DNA from: Candidatus Thorarchaeota archaeon
GTDB taxonomy: Archaea > Asgardarchaeota > Thorarchaeia > Thorarchaeales > Thorarchaeaceae
Direction: 5' to 3'
DNA: 64,000 bases
Assembly: GCA_016933575.1 (NCBI GenBank)
Contig: JAFGAR010000175.1
Coordinates: 27,520 to 91,519 of the forward strand
A model generated the notes under the pieces. That model was not told where the DNA came from and ran no database searches. It saw nothing but the letters and a program-made list of their open reading frames with translations. The first letter of the stretch is position 1. Each line of letters opens with the position of its first letter. Below, one piece after another: positions 7,137 through 41,057 of the stretch. The position numbers and the translations under genes were made by a program.

Positions 7137-8108
7137 TTATACCAGCCTCCTAGTTACTTTTCTAGAAATAATATTAGCGACAATGTCAATTGCAAGGACC
7201 ATAGTCATGAGTGCAACAGCTGTGGCATGTGCTTTGATGTTAAGATAGGCTCGTGGATCGCTTATGTATGACCAGATTGTATAGGGCATAGATGCAACCC
7301 ATGAACCAGGTCCAATGATTTCAGTTGGTGTTGTGAGACTATTGCCAGAAGTGAATATCAGCGGAGCAGTTTCGCCCATTACCCTTCCAATCGCCAATAA
7401 TACTCCAGTGATCACTCCGGGAAATGCCGCTCTTAGTGTGATATTCCATGTTGTTGACCATTTAGTAGCGCCGAGGGCAAGAGATGCTTCTCTCAAAGAC
7501 ATTGGGACTGCGCGAAGAGCTTCCTGAGTTGTTCTCAAGACAGTGGGTATCATCATGAAAGCAAGTGTCAGACTCCCTGATAAGAGACCCATCCCCAAGT
7601 CCAAGAACCCTACTAGAAATACAAAACCAAATGCGCCAAAGACAATACTTGGTATTCCTGCAAGTACATCTGATGTGAATTCGACAACATCACGAAGTCG
7701 ACCAGGTCTTGTGTACTCGTTGATATATACAGCTCCAAAGACACTCAATGGAATTCCTACTGCTGACGCAAGTGTAACAAGAAATAGAGTGCCAAAGAAT
7801 GCATTACGGATTCCACCCATTAACCCTCTACCTGGTTCTGTCAGGAAGAAATTGCTAAATGATTCAAAACCATTAGAGAATAACTCGACAAAACCCACTG
7901 ATGCAACCTGATATAAAACAAGAAAGAAAGGCAGAATGATAATAATAATCCCAATGCCTAAGATGACGTGAAAAAGAAAATCCTTGAAATTCCTACGTGT
8001 TTTTACTATGTTTGACGATACGAGTTTTAATTCTTTAATAAAGTCCCTCTTATCTTTCTCAAACACATCTGGTGCACGTTCATCAAGAGGAATTTCGTTT
8101 TTCGTCAT
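7137..8108 (-). CDS. pstA: Phosphate ABC transporter permease PstA
   Basis: LAGIPSIVFG, REASLALGAT, RVMGETAPL motifs. Confidence 0.95.
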   Translation of the reverse strand: MTKNEIPLDERAPDVFEKDKRDFIKELKLVSSNIVKTRRNFKDFLFHVILGIGIIIIILPFFLVLYQVASVGFVELFSNGFESFSNFFLTEPGRGLMGGIRNAFFGTLFLVTLASAVGIPLSVFGAVYINEYTRPGRLRDVVEFTSDVLAGIPSIVFGAFGFVFLVGFLDLGMGLLSGSLTLAFMMIPTVLRTTQEALRAVPMSLREASLALGATKWSTTWNITLRAAFPGVITGVLLAIGRVMGETAPLIFTSGNSLTTPTEIIGPGSWVASMPYTIWSYISDPRAYLNIKAHATAVALMTMVLAIDIVANIISRKVTRRLV

Positions 8109-8109
8109 T

Positions 8110-9156
8110 CTATACATACCCCCTCGTCTTCATTCCCCATCGGATGAATATCTTAGCTGTAAAAGTGAAAAAGATAGACATGAGTAATAGAATGAATCCC
8201 ACAGCAAAGAGTGCTGATCTCCATAATGGGAAGATAAATGCATATCCAAGTTGATTGGTTATTATGCTAGTCATTACATAAGTAGGATCGAATAGACTAT
8301 AGGGAATTTGAAGAGAATTTCCTGTTACCATTAGAACAGCCATTGTTTCACCTACAGCTCTTCCTAATGACAGGACAACAGCGGCTCCGACTCCGGGAAG
8401 AGCTGCAGAAACAACTATTCTCCTTGCTGTTTCGCTCTTTGTTGCACCAAGTGCGTACGAAGCCTCCCGTAGACTCATTGGAACTGATTGAAGGGCATCG
8501 TTTGATATTGCAACAACTGTGGGTAAAAGCATAATCGCTAGAATGAGCCCTCCTGCAAGAAGGCTGAATCCATTCGTATCTCCTTGAAACCATGGTATCC
8601 AACTAATTAGGATATTATTTTGAACTGCAGGAGCAAAACTATTCTTAATGAATGGTACGATAACAAGTAATGCCCAAAGTCCGTAGACTATTGAAGGAAT
8701 TGCAGCCATCATTTCAACAATCATTCGTATGGGTGAACGAAGATGATTTGGACAATACTCACTAAGGAATATTGCACCTCCCACACCAAGGGGAACAGCA
8801 AGACCGATAGCAATGGCTGCACACATTAAGGAGCCCGTGATGAATACTCCAATCCCATATAGATCTCTATTTGGATCCCACGTAGGTCCAACAATTATTC
8901 CAGGTCCACCCTCAGGACTTGTGAATATCGGTGCAGATTCAAACCACAGGAAAGTGAGAATAAGTATGATTATTATTGTACTGGCAAGAGCAGGTATTGC
9001 TAGTCCAATTCGACCGAAGAAATCGATACGACCTGGAGTATCAGCTTCACGAACTTCGATAAAAGGGGCTTTCAGTTTTTGTAGAATCCTTTTTGTAAGA
9101 CCAGATTGATCTTCACTCATTTCAGTTGCTGAAGCTGAGTCAATATCTTGAGTCAT
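8110..9156 (-). CDS. pstC: Phosphate ABC transporter permease PstC
   Basis: AAIPSIVYGLW, REASYALGAT, GRAVGETMAV motifs. Confidence 0.95.
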   Translation of the reverse strand: MTQDIDSASATEMSEDQSGLTKRILQKLKAPFIEVREADTPGRIDFFGRIGLAIPALASTIIIILILTFLWFESAPIFTSPEGGPGIIVGPTWDPNRDLYGIGVFITGSLMCAAIAIGLAVPLGVGGAIFLSEYCPNHLRSPIRMIVEMMAAIPSIVYGLWALLVIVPFIKNSFAPAVQNNILISWIPWFQGDTNGFSLLAGGLILAIMLLPTVVAISNDALQSVPMSLREASYALGATKSETARRIVVSAALPGVGAAVVLSLGRAVGETMAVLMVTGNSLQIPYSLFDPTYVMTSIITNQLGYAFIFPLWRSALFAVGFILLLMSIFFTFTAKIFIRWGMKTRGYV

Positions 9157-9236
9157 ATTTGATTCTCCTGACAATCAGTTCTAGTTCTTTGTTAATTTCT
9201 GATTTTTTCCGTGACAAATTCGTTGAAAAAGTGTGT

Positions 9237-9274
9237 GGAAGCCAGGTTTCTATATTTGCATTGACCTGGCTTCC
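9237..9274 (-). terminator. Intra-operonic stem-loop between pstS and pstC
   Basis: 11-bp inverted repeat GGAAGCCAGGT...ACCTGGCTTCC just downstream of pstS. Confidence 0.55.
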
Positions 9275-9303
9275 TTTTTGGAAGGAGGATGCTATTAATC
9301 TGT

Positions 9304-10350
9304 TTAACTTGGTATTAAATCACCAACAACACTGAGTGCATAGGTGACAGCTGATGTACCTGAGATTGGCACGTAGCCAACATCAGAGATGTACTGCTGT
9401 CCCTGAGCTAGAACCCAGTTTAAGTATACGATCACATACCAAGCAAGATTGTCTTCATTGACAAGGTAGTACAATAACCTAGCAATTGGATAAGCACCTG
9501 TATTTGCGGAGTTCATCAAGTTTGCTCCAGGATCTGTGAGTTCAGCAGGGAGTGCCTTTAATGCATTCTCCAGATTGGGAGTGATATATTCCTGAATTGT
9601 TGGGTTATAGAGGTCAACGACTGCAAGGTCTTCCATGAATGCAAGTCCTACATATCCAATTCCGCTTGTATCCCCAAGGACACCAGCTGCAACACCTGGA
9701 TTTCCTTCAACAGCACTGATTCCAGCAGGCCATGAAATTGACTCGCTATCACCAAGCCCCCATGTATAGTTTTGGTAGGGATTTGGATTAGCACCTGCTG
9801 TCTTTAGCCATTTTCCAAAAGTCGCAGTTGTTCCAGAAGCATCAGATCTTACGTAGACATTAATATCTCCAGTAGCAGCAATTACAACATTGAAGGCAGT
9901 TTCAAAAACTTCCCATGTTGTAATGTTTCCTTGAAAGATTGCAACTGCCATATCACAGTCCATCTTGAAATTGGATCCATTGACAGCGGGATTGGCTACT
10001 ATGCCAAGTGCATCAGCTGAAACTGGGATAATCTTTACATTAGGATTAGCTGTTCTGTAGTCTGAATTTGGATAAGAGCTTGATGCACCAATATCGATTA
10101 ATTCATCAGCTACTTGAGACTGGCCAAGACCAGAGCCTCCGGTGCTGGGATTAACTGTCATTGCTGGAAAATCAGCGTGGAACTGGGTCGCCCATTCCTG
10201 TGACAAGGGATATACTGTGGTAGAACCAGCAGTAGTGATTATGTATGTGGTGGTTCCAGTACCCCCGGGAGGTGCAATCATGTACATTGCACCTGCGCCA
10301 ATAACAAGTCCTACAACAAGGACTGCTATCAGTTTGATACTATCATTCAT
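9304..10350 (-). CDS. pstS: Phosphate ABC transporter substrate-binding protein
   Basis: AGSTTVYP, GGSGLG, RSDASGTT, GAYPIAR motifs; N-terminal TM anchor; ATG 10350. Confidence 0.93.
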   Translation of the reverse strand: MNDSIKLIAVLVVGLVIGAGAMYMIAPPGGTGTTTYIITTAGSTTVYPLSQEWATQFHADFPAMTVNPSTGGSGLGQSQVADELIDIGASSSYPNSDYRTANPNVKIIPVSADALGIVANPAVNGSNFKMDCDMAVAIFQGNITTWEVFETAFNVVIAATGDINVYVRSDASGTTATFGKWLKTAGANPNPYQNYTWGLGDSESISWPAGISAVEGNPGVAAGVLGDTSGIGYVGLAFMEDLAVVDLYNPTIQEYITPNLENALKALPAELTDPGANLMNSANTGAYPIARLLYYLVNEDNLAWYVIVYLNWVLAQGQQYISDVGYVPISGTSAVTYALSVVGDLIPS

Positions 10351-32132: not shown

Positions 32133-32195
32133 TTAGACATTTTCACCAAAGAACATCAAATGATCTGTCCTTGGAACATCATACCCAAGATAGCG
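32133..32195 (-). repeat. Duplicated 3' end of the dinB-family gene (left boundary of insertion)
   Basis: Minus strand reads RYLGYDVPRTDHLMFFGENV*, matching DinB C-terminus SNLGYDVPGTDYLMFFGENS* at 38634-38696. Confidence 0.85.
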
Positions 32196-32498
32196 AAAAG
32201 AACCCGGTCCTTTAGGCAATGGCGACCGAAGAATAGGCTTTTGTCAAATATATCACTCTTTTCTAAGTATGCATAATACTAACATATTCGAGTAAAATCT
32301 AACAGGTTAATAGTAATCACAAAACGAAGAAAGTACTCATAATCATAAAATTGAAGAAAAGACCAAACTTGGACAAGATTCGTTTAATGATTAGAGCAAA
32401 ATATCTTGAGATTACCATATCTTCTTGATTTATATGGTTCTTTAGAAATCTAATCATCGATATTTATTGATGACAAAACAATTGCAATTATAACAAGA

Positions 32499-33137
32499 AT
32501 GATGGATAATAGGTGTCATTTTAAGATGAGAATGAGGAGTAAGAAGCTACTACTTTTCTTAGTTGCCATATTTGGCTTATTCATGGGAACGACTCTTGCA
32601 ATAGTTCCAGGAATTACAGGATTGAGCAAAGGGTTTCCGAATGCTATTGTGCTCCTTTTTTTTGGAGGTATTACGTATGCGTGTTCGATAAAAATAGCTT
32701 TTATAATAAGAACTCAATTTGAGGAAATACGAGTAGTCCCAAAACCAGATGCTGCTGTTAGCGTGATAGCAATTGATGATGAAGCAGACATCTTGCAACT
32801 TATCCGTATGAAATTATCCAAAGAAGGATTCGATGTTTATACAGCCTCAAATGGTGATGAGGGTATCGAGAAAGTACTTCGTGATAAACCTGATGTTATG
32901 ATTGTAGATATATTGATGCCGGGAAAAGACGGCTATCAGGTAGTAGCTGAAGTGAAAGCAAGACTTCGAGAAGATTCTCCGGTTATAATAATGCTAACTT
33001 CAAAGACTGAAGATGCAGATATGGTTAAGGGGCTATCCATGGATATAGATGATTATATCACGAAACCATTTAGTCCAAGAGAATTAATCGAGAGAATAAA
33101 TGTAGCTCTCATTAAAAGCGCCAAGGAGAATAAGTGA
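32499..33137 (+). CDS. Membrane-anchored response regulator (2 TM + receiver, no output domain)
   Basis: Two hydrophobic helices, then AIDDE, MIVDILMP, MLTS, YITKPF. Confidence 0.88.
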   Translation: MMDNRCHFKMRMRSKKLLLFLVAIFGLFMGTTLAIVPGITGLSKGFPNAIVLLFFGGITYACSIKIAFIIRTQFEEIRVVPKPDAAVSVIAIDDEADILQLIRMKLSKEGFDVYTASNGDEGIEKVLRDKPDVMIVDILMPGKDGYQVVAEVKARLREDSPVIIMLTSKTEDADMVKGLSMDIDDYITKPFSPRELIERINVALIKSAKENK

Positions 33138-33155
33138 GATTGTGGAGGATAAAGT

Positions 33156-36100
33156 TTGGAAGATGAAATCAACGAATCCGACACGGATCTACCAATTGAG
33201 GGCGAAACAATACCATTAATGGAACCAGTGACAAGAATCCACTTTGGCCGTGACAGTCTCCCAATAAGATCCGTACAATATTGGCGAGCTCAGTCTTTTG
33301 CTTCGAGACTTCATAGAGATTTCACTGAGAGTTTAAAAACTGGAAATATTACTTTGATGAAACGCAGCTTTTATGCCCTGGCGGAATTTTATGGACTAAC
33401 ATTAAAATTAATGAGACATTCGCTTCTTAATGGAAATTCTGCATTAATGGTGTCTTCTCTAAGAAGTCTAATTGCACTCAATGCACCACTTCATGACATG
33501 CATAATAGAGCACCAAATACAATACCATTCCCATTGACTTTAGATGAAACTCTATTGAAGTCATTAATATCCGACCTCATTATCAGAGCTTTTAAGGAAT
33601 CAGACATATCCCTCGAGGAATCGAAAATAGTAGAAGATGTAAATCAACATATCTTCGTGCAGCAAATTGCGTCTTTAGTTATTAAAAATCAGCTTCTCGA
33701 GTTAGTAGAGAAAGGACACTTGATGAAGACAGATACAAGCTATACAAGAACAAAACGACCATATGTACACTCAAACTTAGATGATACAAGTCTTCAGTCT
33801 TTTCTGGGTAAAAATATCTATGAAAAATTTCAGATGGGGGGTTTTCCAGGTGTTTCTAATATTATAAACCGTAGAAAATCGTTTCATAAGTTCTTCGAGA
33901 AACTCACTTCATTTGGAGATTTAATCGCAGACATGTTCATTTCTGCATTGATTAGCCTTCTTCTTTCAGAAACTATGAAATCAAAACTTAATGCATGGTC
34001 TCACTTTGATTTAATCAGTTCAGCAATTCCACGACCATATCAACGTGACGCATTCACGATTTTTCGAGGGTATGGATATCAAGGGCAGCTAATTGAAGCA
34101 CCGACAGGTTCAGGAAAAACACTCATTGGTATGATGGCAATTCAAGATTGGATGACATCAATGTCATCAGGTGAGTCTATACTAATTCTAGTACCAACAG
34201 TTAATTACGAACAACAATGGATTAGAGAATTATGCTATAAATTCACAGGACTCAATCTTCCACCTGATGATGTATATGCAGGCACACCGATTGATTATGA
34301 ATCTACTAAGAAGGAATTAGACGCCTCCCCACCTATTCTAATCATGACATATCAATCTCTTGCTCAGTTGGGCTCTTCAAAAGGGAAAGGGGGGTTTGAT
34401 ACCAATTCCATCGAAAAATTCCTTCAAGGTAGCAACATCCGGTATGTGATTTTAGATGAAGTTCACAAGGTAGTCGTTAATTATGATAGTGTTTCAACAG
34501 ATATTACGAGATTACTCCTAGAATGGTTGCATGACGGAAGTATAGAGGGGCTCATTGGTTTCACTGGAACAGCAATAGCATTCAGACAACGATTTCAAGA
34601 TTTAGGATTGCAACTGGTCTATACTCTGTCTTCTGCTGAATTGATAGCATATGGCTTTGTTGCTCCATTTGCTGAGTTTGGGCTTCCATTTACTCATTCT
34701 AATAGAGAAAGAATTATACTCTCTCTTCTTGATGCCTATAAATCGTCAATACGTGAATTCATTGATATTCTAGGGTCAGTGAATTTGAGAACAGTATTTA
34801 GTCAGATACCCTTGGAAAAAAAGATTACAATTGGTCGGGATATTTTAGAAGTTTTTTCAGGAAGAAGGGATCAAGAGATTGCATTAACAGAGCGCTATCA
34901 CGGTTGGGAAAGTGGCGAAGTTTTGAATTTCTATGAATGGCACCTGATCAGCATAATTCAAATTGCTGAGAATTTATCGGATTCTGATCTTCTTGAGAAA
35001 ATGATAGTTGGTCTCCCAATTAATGAACAACATGAGAGAAAGAATAGATTCACAGTAATGTTAGGTTTTTTGATGAAATTGCGGCAAGAATTAGTCAGTC
35101 TGTTAAGATCTCAAGATATCACATATCGCCTTGAAATGCAAGATTTTGGAATAAAGTTAGATACAGAATCACTATATAAAATTGCTAATTCAAAGCGACC
35201 AAAGACCAAAATACGAAATAGAATCAGAGATCTTTTATCAACCACAATCCTAGGTCTTTATACATCTCTCAGTAGTTATCACTATCGAATGGGCGAAGGA
35301 CTTGTAGAATCAGTGAATTCCATAATTAAAGCAGAAAGAGCTGTAAGAAAGCTAAATGCGGTAATTGTTTTTGGTGAAAGTAAACGTATTAAATGGGAGG
35401 AAGGACTTGCTTTTCCAGGATACGCAGGTGTAGCTGGTATTTTTGCTCAATTACTGAACCAACGTGGACTATATCCAATGGCTGTACTTTCAAGTGAAGT
35501 ATATCTTCGTTGGACAAAGAAAAATCAAACTCCACAACGAATTGCAGATTATATCAAAAAGGACATTATGAAGAATGAATTGGGGAATATTCTATTTAGA
35601 CTCCTGACAGTGGGATTGGATCTTTCTCCAGAGAATAGCAATTTGTTCAAAGAATCGTTTGATTCTATTTTAATGAAGTATGCCAATAGACTCACTTCGA
35701 TAGGAGCAACAAGACCTGCGGAATTTGTGAGAGAAGTTCTTAAACCACTTCAAAAGACGTTGCCCAGTATAGTAGAAAGAGATGATATTCCTAAACTTAA
35801 ATCAAGATTGAGTTTAAAAAATCGTCACGTGCAGAAATGGATAACTGATTTCTATAACTATGGAATCATCGCAGCTCGTTTCTTGAAAGCACCAACAGCA
35901 GAATTGTACCAAGCATCTGGTAAAAAAATGAAATTCTTTGTAGTGAAAATGCCTCAAGGAGAAATGAAGCAACTCATGTATGATTTAGCCAGTAGAATAG
36001 TTGATGAAGAAAAACTGGGAATCAATGTCATAATTGTATCAAATTGGGCGAGAACTGGATGGAATGTCATAAGACCAGATCTCCTCATAGATACAACAGC

Positions 36101-36764
36101 AACACGAAATGTAACAGCATGGCAACAACTTCGAGGAAGAGCCATGAGAGCCACGTCTACTTGGGATAAAAAGTGCTATGAGGCATTGATGCTTCTCGTA
36201 GGTTCAAGAATAGGAGATCTTGTTGAGCAAACTGGTGACTTCAGTAAAACCGGTGAAGATCAGAGTGTTCAAGAATACAAGCAATTGGACAAGGCTACTA
36301 TCAACCTATTCTTGCAGATTCATAACGAGGCTAGGCAAATAAGTGACTATAATCCAAAGTACAATCTGACAAGAAAAATCATACAAGGGGATCTAGAACA
36401 ATTTATGGATGTTGAACGAGAACAACTTGCTCTTGAAATGATGATTGTCCGGAACAAGGTGACGCATATTTATGAACTTGTCAAAGCATATGGAAGCTCA
36501 ATCCAAATAAGACAAAATAGGCAAACAAAGGTATGGAGCAGAATTGATTCGATTGCTACCAAACATTCCTCTCAGTATTCTGTCAATCCATTTACAGGTA
36601 AATATTGTTCAGGTGAAAGTCATGCACCTCTAGTTTATTGGAAAGACCCGAGGAAATATTCTCCAGAAGAATTGAGAGTATATTTAACATCAAAACTGAA
36701 AGGCTGCGATCCTAGAATTATACAAGGGTGGTTTGATGCGGTCATCTCAGGAAGAGGAAACTAG
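33156..36764 (+). CDS. Large SF2 DExH helicase/ATPase (ResIII/XPB-like core with helical insertions)
   Basis: PRPYQ, APTGSGKT, LVPT, TYQSL, DEVH, GFTGT, TGWN, QQLRGRAMR; GGAGG RBS + TTG. Confidence 0.88.
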   Translation: MEDEINESDTDLPIEGETIPLMEPVTRIHFGRDSLPIRSVQYWRAQSFASRLHRDFTESLKTGNITLMKRSFYALAEFYGLTLKLMRHSLLNGNSALMVSSLRSLIALNAPLHDMHNRAPNTIPFPLTLDETLLKSLISDLIIRAFKESDISLEESKIVEDVNQHIFVQQIASLVIKNQLLELVEKGHLMKTDTSYTRTKRPYVHSNLDDTSLQSFLGKNIYEKFQMGGFPGVSNIINRRKSFHKFFEKLTSFGDLIADMFISALISLLLSETMKSKLNAWSHFDLISSAIPRPYQRDAFTIFRGYGYQGQLIEAPTGSGKTLIGMMAIQDWMTSMSSGESILILVPTVNYEQQWIRELCYKFTGLNLPPDDVYAGTPIDYESTKKELDASPPILIMTYQSLAQLGSSKGKGGFDTNSIEKFLQGSNIRYVILDEVHKVVVNYDSVSTDITRLLLEWLHDGSIEGLIGFTGTAIAFRQRFQDLGLQLVYTLSSAELIAYGFVAPFAEFGLPFTHSNRERIILSLLDAYKSSIREFIDILGSVNLRTVFSQIPLEKKITIGRDILEVFSGRRDQEIALTERYHGWESGEVLNFYEWHLISIIQIAENLSDSDLLEKMIVGLPINEQHERKNRFTVMLGFLMKLRQELVSLLRSQDITYRLEMQDFGIKLDTESLYKIANSKRPKTKIRNRIRDLLSTTILGLYTSLSSYHYRMGEGLVESVNSIIKAERAVRKLNAVIVFGESKRIKWEEGLAFPGYAGVAGIFAQLLNQRGLYPMAVLSSEVYLRWTKKNQTPQRIADYIKKDIMKNELGNILFRLLTVGLDLSPENSNLFKESFDSILMKYANRLTSIGATRPAEFVREVLKPLQKTLPSIVERDDIPKLKSRLSLKNRHVQKWITDFYNYGIIAARFLKAPTAELYQASGKKMKFFVVKMPQGEMKQLMYDLASRIVDEEKLGINVIIVSNWARTGWNVIRPDLLIDTTATRNVTAWQQLRGRAMRATSTWDKKCYEALMLLVGSRIGDLVEQTGDFSKTGEDQSVQEYKQLDKATINLFLQIHNEARQISDYNPKYNLTRKIIQGDLEQFMDVEREQLALEMMIVRNKVTHIYELVKAYGSSIQIRQNRQTKVWSRIDSIATKHSSQYSVNPFTGKYCSGESHAPLVYWKDPRKYSPEELRVYLTSKLKGCDPRIIQGWFDAVISGRGN

Positions 36765-36805
36765 TATTTTGACATATTGTATCAGGTATAAGGAAGGGAA
36801 TATCT

Positions 36806-38350
36806 TTGACCGAGCTGCCAAGTGCTTTTAGAAAAGCAGAATGGGAAAAACTCATAGCATTAGTTTTAGAGATAAATGGTATTTTAATGACTGATTCAAA
36901 TGGGATTATTCTTTGGGTTAATGATGCCTTTACTCATATAACTGGTTACTCTCCCGAAGAAGCAATTGGAAAAAAAACCAATCTTCTGAAATCCGGATAT
37001 CATGATTCAAATTTTTACAGGATTCTTTGGGACACGATAACCTCAGGCGAAGTATGGTCTGGGGTAATAACAAATAGAAGAAAAGATGGAAGCTACTACA
37101 GGGAATTGATGTCAATAGCTCCATTGAAAATAGAAGATGGAAGTATTGCTCGTTACATTGCTATGAAAAAAGATGTAAGAGACTTTCATAATTTGAGTGA
37201 TGCTGAAAGACAACCCAGCGCAGTGATCGATAGGGTTGTGCCATTGATGACCGAGCTTAATGATGTCACTACTGCACTAGAACAAGCCAAAAGTGAAACG
37301 AATGCCATGCTCAACGCAACAAGTGAGGCAATAATGCTTCTCTCAATTGATGATAGGATGTTGTGGCTTAACAAGGCCTTTGGGAGATTCTTCTCATTAA
37401 TTACACAAGATGTAATTGATGATTTCTTTCACAACTTGAAATCCCATTGGGATAGAGTCTTCGAGGATTCATCGAAAATAATGCACATTGTTAATAGTGC
37501 AAAGGAAAATCAGGTTTCTGAGTATCGAGAAGCAGTTTCCCAAATTTGGCCACAGAAACGAGAGCTAGAAGTATACTCAGCACCTGTAAAAGATGCTAGC
37601 GGAAAATATTTGGGACAGCTCTTCGTGTTCCGTGATGTAACACGTGAGCGAGCGATAGAACGAATGAAATCGGAATTTGTATCTTTGGTATCTCACGAGT
37701 TCCGAACACCCTTAACGTCTATTTGTGGTTATACGGAAATGTTGTTAGAAGGAGATGCTGGAGAGCTCACTGATGAACAAACAGATTTTCTGAAAACTAT
37801 TCAAAGAAACGCAAACAATCTTGCTGATATTATAAACAGTCTTCTGGTTGTTTCTCGACTTGAGGCAGGCGCAATAAAACTAAACTTGGGTGAAATTGAG
37901 ATACATGATATTGTGGATAACACAATTGAATTATTACGACCTCATATTGTTGCCAAAAATTTGAAACTAAAGGTAAATGTTAATCCAGATTTACCAGTAG
38001 TGGAAGGTGATAGTCAATGGATTAATCAAGTCATCCTTAATCTTCTGTCAAACGCTTACAAATACACTCCCTCTGGTGGGACAATAACAATTTCAGCAAA
38101 AGCAAAAGATGATTTTCTCTATATCAAAATCACGGATTCAGGAATAGGAATGTCAACAGATGAACAAAAGAAATTATTTACGAAGTTCTTTCGAGCTGAA
38201 AATCCTGAAACCATTAAAGCAGGTGGGACAGGTTTGGGACTTTGGATCTCTCGTTCATTGGTTGAAATGCATGGGGGAGAGATTTTCGTAATCAGTAAAC
38301 CCAAAAAGGGTTCCATTCTCACGATTAAATTGCCAATCAAAAACAAATAA
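36806..38350 (+). CDS. Soluble PAS-PAS sensor histidine kinase
   Basis: PAS (WVNDAFTHITGYS..EAIG...RRKDG), H-box SHEFRTPL, N-box NLLSNAYKYT, DSGIG, GGTGLGL. Confidence 0.95.
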   Translation: MTELPSAFRKAEWEKLIALVLEINGILMTDSNGIILWVNDAFTHITGYSPEEAIGKKTNLLKSGYHDSNFYRILWDTITSGEVWSGVITNRRKDGSYYRELMSIAPLKIEDGSIARYIAMKKDVRDFHNLSDAERQPSAVIDRVVPLMTELNDVTTALEQAKSETNAMLNATSEAIMLLSIDDRMLWLNKAFGRFFSLITQDVIDDFFHNLKSHWDRVFEDSSKIMHIVNSAKENQVSEYREAVSQIWPQKRELEVYSAPVKDASGKYLGQLFVFRDVTRERAIERMKSEFVSLVSHEFRTPLTSICGYTEMLLEGDAGELTDEQTDFLKTIQRNANNLADIINSLLVVSRLEAGAIKLNLGEIEIHDIVDNTIELLRPHIVAKNLKLKVNVNPDLPVVEGDSQWINQVILNLLSNAYKYTPSGGTITISAKAKDDFLYIKITDSGIGMSTDEQKKLFTKFFRAENPETIKAGGTGLGLWISRSLVEMHGGEIFVISKPKKGSILTIKLPIKNK

Positions 38351-38633: not shown

Positions 38634-39116
38634 CTATGAGTTCTCACCAAAGAACATCAAATAATCTGTTCCAGGAACATCATAACCAAGATTGCTAAGG
38701 ACCATTGCTAATTGTCCCCGGTGATGGGTTGTATGAAGCAAGTAATGGAGATAGAAATCAAAGACATCTATCTCAAAGGGTTCTTCGTTGATGTGCGTCA
38801 CAGAGAGTTTTCCCTGAGGGATCTCTTCGATAACTTGACTTAGCAGATTATCGAGCACTTCCCATCGTTTCAATAATTCTTGTCTTGGAAATCTCTTCAC
38901 TCTATCAAAGACAGATGCATCTTTCTCACCATCAATATAAAAGAAACAGGTCTCCAATGCCAGTACAATATGCTGGACCAACTCCTTAGGACTCTTTCCT
39001 GCAACCTGTTTTACAAAGGTATCTACATCGAGCTCCTTGAGAAGCTCTCTCATCTTCCAACCAGCCCAAATATGATAGTCAGCTAAGTACTTGAAGACCA
39101 ATTGAATCTCCCTCAA
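38634..39116 (-). CDS. DinB/YfiT family protein
   Basis: Y..WA, QHIV, H..HHRGQL..VL..LG motifs. Confidence 0.85.
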   Translation of the reverse strand: MREIQLVFKYLADYHIWAGWKMRELLKELDVDTFVKQVAGKSPKELVQHIVLALETCFFYIDGEKDASVFDRVKRFPRQELLKRWEVLDNLLSQVIEEIPQGKLSVTHINEEPFEIDVFDFYLHYLLHTTHHRGQLAMVLSNLGYDVPGTDYLMFFGENS

Positions 39117-40421: not shown

Positions 40422-41057
40422 ATGGGACCAAAGAGAACTCATGGAAAAAGTCCTGATGAACACAGTAGAATTGTCAGAGATGGTTACGATAAGATTGCAC
40501 ATCAATATATGCAGGAGAGAGAGCAATACTGCAATGACAAAGAGATTCAGGAGTTTATCAACCGATTACATGAAAAAGCAAGAGTATTGGACATTGGTTG
40601 TGGAGGCGGAGTTCCTGTTCTTAAGATGATGCTTGAAAATGGATTCATTGCAACAGGTATTGACTTCTCAAAAACGATGTTAGAAATTGCTAAGAAGAAT
40701 GTTCCTGATGCACATTTGATTCATGGAGATGTTACGAAGGCAGATTTCGAATCGAATTTTTTTGATGGCATTATCTCTACCTATGCCATCATTCACATTC
40801 ACAAGAGTCTGCATCCTGTAATATACGCACAAATCTACAAATGGTTAAAACCAGGTGGAGTGATGCTTATGGGAACATCGTGGTCAGATTGGGAAGAGAT
40901 TGCGGAATATATGGGAGTTGACATGGCTTGGAGTCATCCAGCTCCTGATACTAGTCTTCAAATGGTTAAGAACGCAGGATTTGAAGTCATCTTTGACCGT
41001 CTTGTTCCAACAGGAAATAATGAAACCGTTTATTGGATTTTAGCGAGAAAGAATTAG
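40422..41057 (+). CDS. Class I SAM-dependent methyltransferase
   Basis: VLDIGCGGG, GIDFS, WLKPGG. Confidence 0.9.
   Translation: MGPKRTHGKSPDEHSRIVRDGYDKIAHQYMQEREQYCNDKEIQEFINRLHEKARVLDIGCGGGVPVLKMMLENGFIATGIDFSKTMLEIAKKNVPDAHLIHGDVTKADFESNFFDGIISTYAIIHIHKSLHPVIYAQIYKWLKPGGVMLMGTSWSDWEEIAEYMGVDMAWSHPAPDTSLQMVKNAGFEVIFDRLVPTGNNETVYWILARKN

Follow-up and report, generated by a model that had tools for sequence, protein, structure and literature searches.

A 64,000-nt window of the genome of Candidatus Thorarchaeota archaeon (contig JAFGAR010000175.1 of assembly GCA_016933575.1, positions 27,520 to 91,519 of the forward strand; coordinates below count from the first letter of the window) carries a three-gene cassette encoding a receiver protein, a superfamily 2 (SF2) helicase and a histidine kinase. 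This cassette is a real, strongly conserved and apparently undescribed two-component variant with a helicase family as its output, for which a mechanism can plausibly be drawn. On balance we favour a dedicated phosphorelay with a nucleic-acid motor as its conserved output partner, a redox cue at the input and the receiver switching the helicase. The argument is built on the gene order, on intact catalytic and phospho-acceptor residues, and on the way receiver, kinase core and helicase stay linked and co-vary across phyla. An earlier sequence-only reading of the window had not recognised the arrangement as a described system, and we likewise found no description of a receiver-helicase-kinase module in the literature searched.

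Most archaeal and many bacterial response regulators are bare receiver domains whose targets or partners are mostly unassigned (PMC5847659), and the module gives this family a specific partner candidate, kept from phylum to phylum. Confirmation would make it the first two-component pathway found in the literature searched with an SF2 helicase as direct output, and would provide a regulatory logic for an uncharacterised helicase family whose C-terminal domain lacks a structural match. Its proteins are soluble except for the membrane anchor of the Asgard receivers, which makes them feasible to work on.

The receiver and the helicase travel together across phyla

The cassette consists of a receiver gene (212 aa, 32499-33137), a helicase gene (1202 aa, TTG start, 33156-36764) and a histidine kinase gene (514 aa, TTG start, 36806-38350), all on the forward strand and separated by 18 and 41 nt respectively. 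The open reading frame list places the three co-oriented genes and both short gaps exactly where the sequence-only reading had seen them. Helicase relatives comprise more than 250 full-length proteins with 40-91% identity, from Thor- and Lokiarchaeota, Bathyarchaeia, Methanomicrobia, Desulfobacterota, Chloroflexota, Actinomycetota and other groups; a cultured carrier is Methanosphaerula subterraneus (locus L028).

Gene neighbours were analysed at 80 loci from one-genome-per-species contigs, with upstream counts taken from the 69 loci that have at least 600 nt of upstream DNA. These loci come from Asgard archaea, Bathyarchaeia, Methanomicrobia, Desulfobacterota, Chloroflexota, Actinomycetota and further groups. 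At 57 of the 69, the gene immediately upstream of the helicase, on the same strand, encodes a receiver (57 of 61 without a divergent Heimdall branch described below, which accounts for 8 of the 12 exceptions). Same-strand adjacent kinases were found at 33 loci, positioned downstream in Asgard, Desulfobacterota and Bathyarchaeia, and upstream of the receiver, often as hybrid kinases, in Chloroflexota. Apart from receiver and kinase, no gene cluster is common across the helicase loci. Because dozens of loci in unrelated phyla show the arrangement, it is not due to chance, and the association with kinase and receiver that had been proposed from the single Thorarchaeota locus holds when homologues are scored for such neighbours.

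The helicase-adjacent receiver (REC) domains form a group of their own. FastTree split analysis assigned 58 of 58 to one clade (support 0.96), the sole extra member being a REC domain fused to a kinase directly upstream of the helicase in locus L054. In this Dormibacteraeota locus (~7860-9950) the helicase-type receiver is joined to the kinase C-terminus in a protein of 696 aa. The median identity of the adjacent REC domains is 50% among themselves and 29% to other REC domains of the same loci. Pairwise identities of helicase and REC gave a Spearman coefficient of 0.62, reached by 0 of 200 label permutations; kinship inflates such figures, and we read the correlation only as showing that the two genes travel together. 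Judged from these comparisons, the adjacent receivers are a family dedicated to the helicase.

The acceptor aspartate is retained in all 32 REC domains that have an adjacent kinase. It is replaced by E or G in eight receivers from Chloroflexota and Actinomycetota (L043, L044, L045, L047, L051, L053, L063 and L085), every one of which lacks an adjacent kinase and still lies beside the helicase, so that they look like pseudo-receivers kept as helicase partners. Among the helicase-adjacent kinases, PAS2, HisKA and HATPase_c are conserved in 33 of 33 (E values from 1e-11 to 1e-87) and the N-terminal sensor part varies by lineage; by this measure the kinases are orthologous. Since the receivers form a dedicated clade, co-vary with the helicase and are retained as E/G variants without a kinase, it is the receiver-helicase pair that makes up the module's core, with the kinase as a losable input. 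When the Heimdall branch is assumed as the root of the helicase tree, the Asgard, Bathyarchaeia and methanogen helicases nest inside bacterial ones, and the module is therefore not specifically archaeal.

The kinase and the receiver carry the residues of a two-component pair

The kinase has the architecture PAS1-PAS2-HisKA-HATPase_c and is soluble, no transmembrane (TM) segment being found in it (maximum KD19 1.34). Its core (37664-38341, forward strand) contains HisKA (residues 287-355, 1.1e-19) and HATPase_c (residues 401-512, 2.4e-29), with the H-box histidine His297 in the motif SHEFRTP and a full set of N (412), G1 (444), F (458) and G2 (473) boxes. PAS1 (36860-37210, forward strand, residues ~19-135) is of flavin type: its nearest solved relatives are MmoS (3ewk, 3e-29), NifL PAS1 (2gj3, 1e-18) and the Aer PAS domain (8dik, 2e-14), and it matches the NCBIfam NifL model at 1.9e-40. 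The PAS domains of MmoS, NifL and Aer bind FAD and sense redox state or oxygen, and presumably PAS1 of the cassette kinase is likewise a flavin redox or oxygen sensor. For PAS2 (37256-37654, forward strand, residues ~151-283) no solved relative was found by sequence.

The receiver protein carries an OmpR/PhoB-type REC domain (32763-33101, forward strand, residues 89-201, Pfam Response_reg 1.9e-26) with the acidic pair D93/D94, the acceptor D137, T167 and K189 all present. Pfam found only REC, and no output domain was found beyond this domain and a predicted two-TM hairpin (32541-32708, forward strand, residues ~15-70); the earlier description of an intact phospho-acceptor site without DNA-binding or enzymatic output is accurate. 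The hairpin comprises hydrophobic segments at about 15-42 and 46-70, and because the N-terminus is rich in K/R (six among the first 16 residues), the REC domain should face the cytoplasm. Among the helicase-adjacent loci compared, this TM extension is confined to Asgard-clade receivers, and most receivers of the family are soluble REC-only proteins of ~130 aa.

The helicase represents an unnamed SF2 family

The helicase matches Pfam DEAD (3.3e-15), ResIII (2.5e-12, in its first RecA lobe) and, weakly, Helicase_C at residues 922-999. All SF2 motifs from Q to VI listed in the sequence-only reading could be located, namely PRPYQ (292), APTGSGKT (315), DEVH (434) and QQLRGRAMR (990), together with GFTGTA (468), and motifs Q, I, Ia, II, III and VI are invariant among 30 diverse homologues. 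The full-length model (mean predicted local distance difference test score, pLDDT, 80.7) shows two RecA lobes. Following the forward strand, a disordered acidic tail (33156-33284, residues 1-43) leads into an N-domain (33288-33995, residues ~45-280) composed of a helical bundle and a probable winged helix (H155-163, H173-185, E189-192 and E195-198), which is supported by scattered winged helix-turn-helix (wHTH) Pfam matches among the homologues. RecA-like lobe 1 (34023-34685, residues ~290-510) spans the Q motif, motif I, DEVH and motif III. It is followed by an insert region (34701-35885), in which helical insertions at 516-730 and 792-910 flank a small beta subdomain (736-785), and by the C-terminal part of RecA-like lobe 2 (35895-36155, residues ~914-1000) with motif VI. 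The inserts total ~400 residues, are mostly helical and, in the model, appear to be placed like the Hel2i insertion of RIG-I-type helicases.

Foldseek ranked the helicase domains of Hef, MDA5/RIG-I/Dicer, FANCM and XPF at the top. The VIA structure search gave Hef (Z 17.7) and XPB (~17), with Brr2 and SNF2-type motors at ~16 called tied, so that the SF2 fold matches lie at Z 16-18. By sequence, the best matches are XPB/Rad25, far under the family thresholds. The helicase is a member of a rare, unnamed SF2 family nearest to duplex or fork translocases of the XPB, Hef and RIG-I type.

The motor is followed by a family-specific C-terminal domain (36276-36761, forward strand, residues 1041-1202) with the invariant residues N1100, K1101, T1103, H1104, E1107, K1110, K1136, H1137, H1156, P1158, P1165 and R1166. 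Folded alone, its ~160 residues gave a pLDDT of 84. Foldseek against the PDB returned no match at E <= 0.001, the wide VIA search reached a best Z of 4.9, the ESM Atlas structure search a best TM-score of 0.38, and the ESM Atlas feature search weak leads only; from the model, no fold is assigned to the domain, which is not proof of a new fold. Its profile found 126 representatives among 1.84 billion proteins, in which the domain always lies at the C-terminal end, either of a ~1050-1400-aa helicase or of a fragment. The invariant His, Glu and Lys prompted a nuclease reading of the beta-beta-alpha-metal (HNH) type, which we rejected: neither a conserved His in the first strand nor any fold match speaks for it.

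In the disordered tail of the helicase, the motif LEPxLDVExSPMMEP is conserved in many homologues, though not in all. It was considered as a CheY-FliM-like docking peptide and was not used as evidence, being missing from several helicases that have both receiver and kinase. Prediction of a complex between the receiver domain and helicase residues 1-870 gave a score of 0.23 (mark 0.32), which was counted neither for nor against binding.

Proposed mechanism and alternative explanations

In the mechanism that we favour, the soluble kinase would sense a cytoplasmic cue, here probably redox state or oxygen through its flavin-type PAS1, autophosphorylate on His297 and hand its phosphoryl group on to the receiver's Asp137. 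Such His-to-Asp transfer would agree with, and is indirectly backed by, the retention of the acceptor beside every kinase and its replacement only where no kinase is adjacent. The receiver would act as the switch subunit of the adjacent helicase, in this organism from the membrane, and would either switch on or off its ATP-driven movement along duplex or branched nucleic acid, DNA or RNA, or localise the helicase. Because no nuclease was recognised in the cassette, the action of the helicase would most likely be remodelling (unwinding, protein displacement, or opening of DNA or RNA structures) and not cleavage. A physiological role in a stress or redox response is more likely than one in classical anti-phage defence.

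The sequence-only reading had suggested that the helicase may be a phosphorylation-gated effector with a role in defence, stress or nucleic-acid remodelling. The effector part of this proposal is supported by a dedicated monophyletic receiver family, its linkage and its co-variation, and from these we infer direct gating. Among the suggested roles, defence is the one least supported by genomic context.

Several observations weigh against a receiver-switched helicase. For nineteen receivers whose acceptor Asp is intact, the fetched locus contains no kinase. In a basal helicase clade from Verrucomicrobia and Dehalococcoidia (L065, L067 and L077), no receiver is adjacent where upstream DNA exists (L067 and L077). 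No receiver-helicase fusion was seen among the proteins with the C-terminal domain, the longest of which has 1401 aa. The alpha4-beta5-alpha5 signature of the receivers (GADDYITKPF...) is conserved, but it is largely the generic signature of the OmpR/PhoB family and is therefore by itself no marker of a helicase-docking face; what suggests that receiver and helicase bind is their linkage and co-variation only. The helicase is also patchy in its own genus, with full-length copies in 3 of 24 other genomes searched and a fragment in a fourth, and this distribution, the low G+C and the indel behaviour of the cassette also fit a defence system.

An undescribed defence against mobile elements, in which kinase or helicase would sense infection and the phosphorylated receiver would license the helicase against invading nucleic acid, is the most probable of the alternatives, and we consider it rather unlikely. 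It would account for the accessory status of the helicase and for a cassette of lower G+C that behaves as an indel with a flanking 58-nt repeat, and homologues of 40-50% identity are spread over bacteria and archaea, in keeping with horizontal transfer. Large SF2 helicases are common in defence systems, the fold matches include the sensors RIG-I, MDA5 and Dicer, and two-component-like modules occur in defence, for example in Ambrosia (bioRxiv 10.1101/2025.09.30.679545). The genomic context speaks otherwise. Searched against PADLOC-DB v2, as the sequence-only reading had advised, the helicase fell into no defence or restriction-modification family and gave weak partial matches, the best being PbeA (1.1e-9) over residues 289-439 of the first RecA lobe; receiver and kinase matched only as generic REC and HATPase. 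Neither a nuclease nor a methylase nor another effector was found in the cassette by Pfam, NCBIfam and PADLOC profile scans. The 140 flanking genes of homologous loci are mostly metabolic or housekeeping, with few defence-model matches, all to generic families, and no enrichment; the equivalent locus in relatives has no PADLOC system, and searches of plasmids, phages and IMG/VR contigs did not turn up the helicase. The flavin/redox type of PAS1 also argues against defence.

The signal might instead flow in reverse, a RIG-I-like helicase sensing nucleic acid and controlling the kinase, with the receiver as the final output, for example at the membrane. RIG-I, MDA5 and Dicer are indeed among the best Foldseek matches, PAS2 is present in all adjacent kinases and could dock the helicase, and the Asgard-clade receiver is membrane-anchored. 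Most receivers of the family, however, are the plain soluble REC domains described above, which offer nothing to serve as output, and the lineages without kinase and acceptor Asp keep the receiver-helicase pair, which is hard to explain if the kinase links the two; we regard this reading as improbable. Least probable is a linkage without direct mechanism, in which the receiver would be a phosphate sink or serve another pathway and the helicase would be merely co-transcribed: stand-alone receivers are very common in archaea, most of them with no assigned partner (PMC5847659), and the receiver-helicase interaction is something we infer, but the adjacent receivers make up a single clade, vary in step with the helicase and hold their position across phyla and inter-domain transfers, and pseudo-receivers are kept beside the helicase without a kinase.

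Comparison with known systems

By the tests run, the cassette lies outside XPB, restriction-modification and any PADLOC system. XPB/Rad25 (SSL2, COG1061) is the best sequence match of lobe 1 (NCBIfam XPB 7e-10; PDB Rad25 6e-7), but the helicase scores 38 bits against the 610 cut-off of the XPB/Rad25 model NF045503, over residues 293-439 only, and is not a member. Within the Hef/FANCM/XPF group, the helicase domain of Hef leads the fold matches; the C-terminal domain folded alone gave no match of any kind above the Z of 4.9, and no ERCC4 Pfam match was found in the helicase. Unlike XPB and Hef, the cassette helicase shows no recognisable Bax1 or XPF-type nuclease as partner or domain and is accompanied by receiver and kinase; it also differs from XPB, Hef and FANCM in adding a winged-helix N-domain, inserts of 400 aa and a C-terminal domain of its own.

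With RIG-I and Dicer the helicase shares a duplex-tracking SF2 core, a helical insertion in lobe 2 and a C-terminal accessory domain (Foldseek E about 1e-6). In contrast to this likeness, the TM-scores by query are low (0.16-0.23) and there is no significant sequence similarity past motif I, and the C-terminal domain, which has no conserved Cys, is unrelated to the zinc-binding C-terminal domain of RIG-I. The ResIII match of lobe 1 recalls the helicase subunits of Type I/III restriction systems; however, no Mod, HsdM or HsdS gene and no recognisable endonuclease domain lies in or beside the cassette, and the conserved partners are signalling proteins. Profile scans of the cassette proteins detected neither a nuclease nor a cognate methyltransferase, which upholds the earlier judgement that this is not a standard Type I/III system.

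Single-domain response regulators of the CheY type act by binding a protein target, as in CheY-FliM, CpdR-ClpXP and DivK. The cassette receiver is like them in having an intact acceptor and no output domain and in being encoded beside its presumed target and cognate kinase; it is unlike them in that the presumed target is an SF2 helicase, and in being of OmpR/PhoB type and, in the Asgard clade, membrane-anchored. Among two-component-like modules, Ambrosia and the HEF_HK/Response_reg_2 modules found beside restriction-modification genes, whose kinase and receiver are atypical (PF19191/PF19192), encode a methylase and an HNH or other nuclease (bioRxiv 10.1101/2025.09.30.679545; PMC8011034), and the Ambrosia receiver controls transcription through a wHTH output (bioRxiv 10.1101/2025.09.30.679545). 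These modules likewise combine kinase and receiver with a nucleic-acid enzyme in an accessory cassette, whereas the present one has canonical HisKA, HATPase_c and Response_reg domains, the helicase as sole partner, and neither a methylase nor an HNH gene.

A divergent Heimdall branch has a GTPase at the receiver position

The divergent Heimdall-type helicases are ~1400 aa long and 29-35% identical (L078:5821-13909; L072, L073, L075, L079, L081, L082 and L083). Their loci have no receiver and share a conserved operon in which an actin-like ATPase (ALP_N/MreB-like_C), two proteins that gave no significant Pfam match, and an Arf/Ras-like small GTPase precede the helicase; the genes downstream of it encode a TrmB-like wHTH protein and a RING-finger protein. 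Because the GTPase, a molecular switch, directly precedes the helicase where the receiver sits elsewhere, the branch suggests a general design of "switch protein plus this helicase". More speculatively, and with little weight placed on it, there might be a whole class of switch-gated nucleic-acid motors, in which this private helicase family always comes with a small upstream switch, either a receiver fed by a dedicated kinase, as in bacteria and most archaea, or, in Heimdallarchaeia, an Arf/Ras-like GTPase. In that case the mechanics of DNA or RNA would be under the direct control of two-component signalling, with no transcription factor in between, and the Asgard version may couple a nucleic-acid motor to regulation of the cytoskeleton or GTPase type.

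Cassette borders and minor observations

The cassette behaves as an indel. In the window it sits between p343 and a DinB-family gene, and an empty site in a related genome (G013, L101) contains PFK, the DinB-family gene, two p343 paralogues and an FMN reductase without the cassette. The three genes are bracketed by two copies of a 58-nt imperfect direct repeat that are 86% identical: at the left border, the copy at 32140-32197 is a remnant of a DinB-family gene's 3' end, and the right copy (38641-38698) lies within the 3' end of the intact DinB-family gene (38634-39116, reverse strand) that flanks the cassette and encodes a DinB/YfiT-like protein, not a polymerase. The G+C content of the cassette (32-38 kb) is 0.355-0.381 against ~0.40 in the flanks, and no integrase or transposase gene is present inside it. 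The methyltransferase nearest to the cassette (40422-41057) is of the small-molecule type and is kept in relatives without the cassette.

The variable region by the DinB-family gene holds other large accessory genes in relatives (L102:2056-8651, L100:2980-6108 and L103:3592-7041), which encode AAA_16-TPR STAND-type NTPases (~1040-1130 aa) or a Kelch-metallophosphatase protein and gave no PADLOC system match. The helicases of L021 and L022 are adjacent tips with near-zero branches, yet they are binned as Bathyarchaeota and Patescibacteria, and one of the two bins is probably wrong. The helicases of L067 and L077 have glutamate dehydrogenase, a disulphide oxidoreductase, a HIT protein and an MFS transporter as neighbours.

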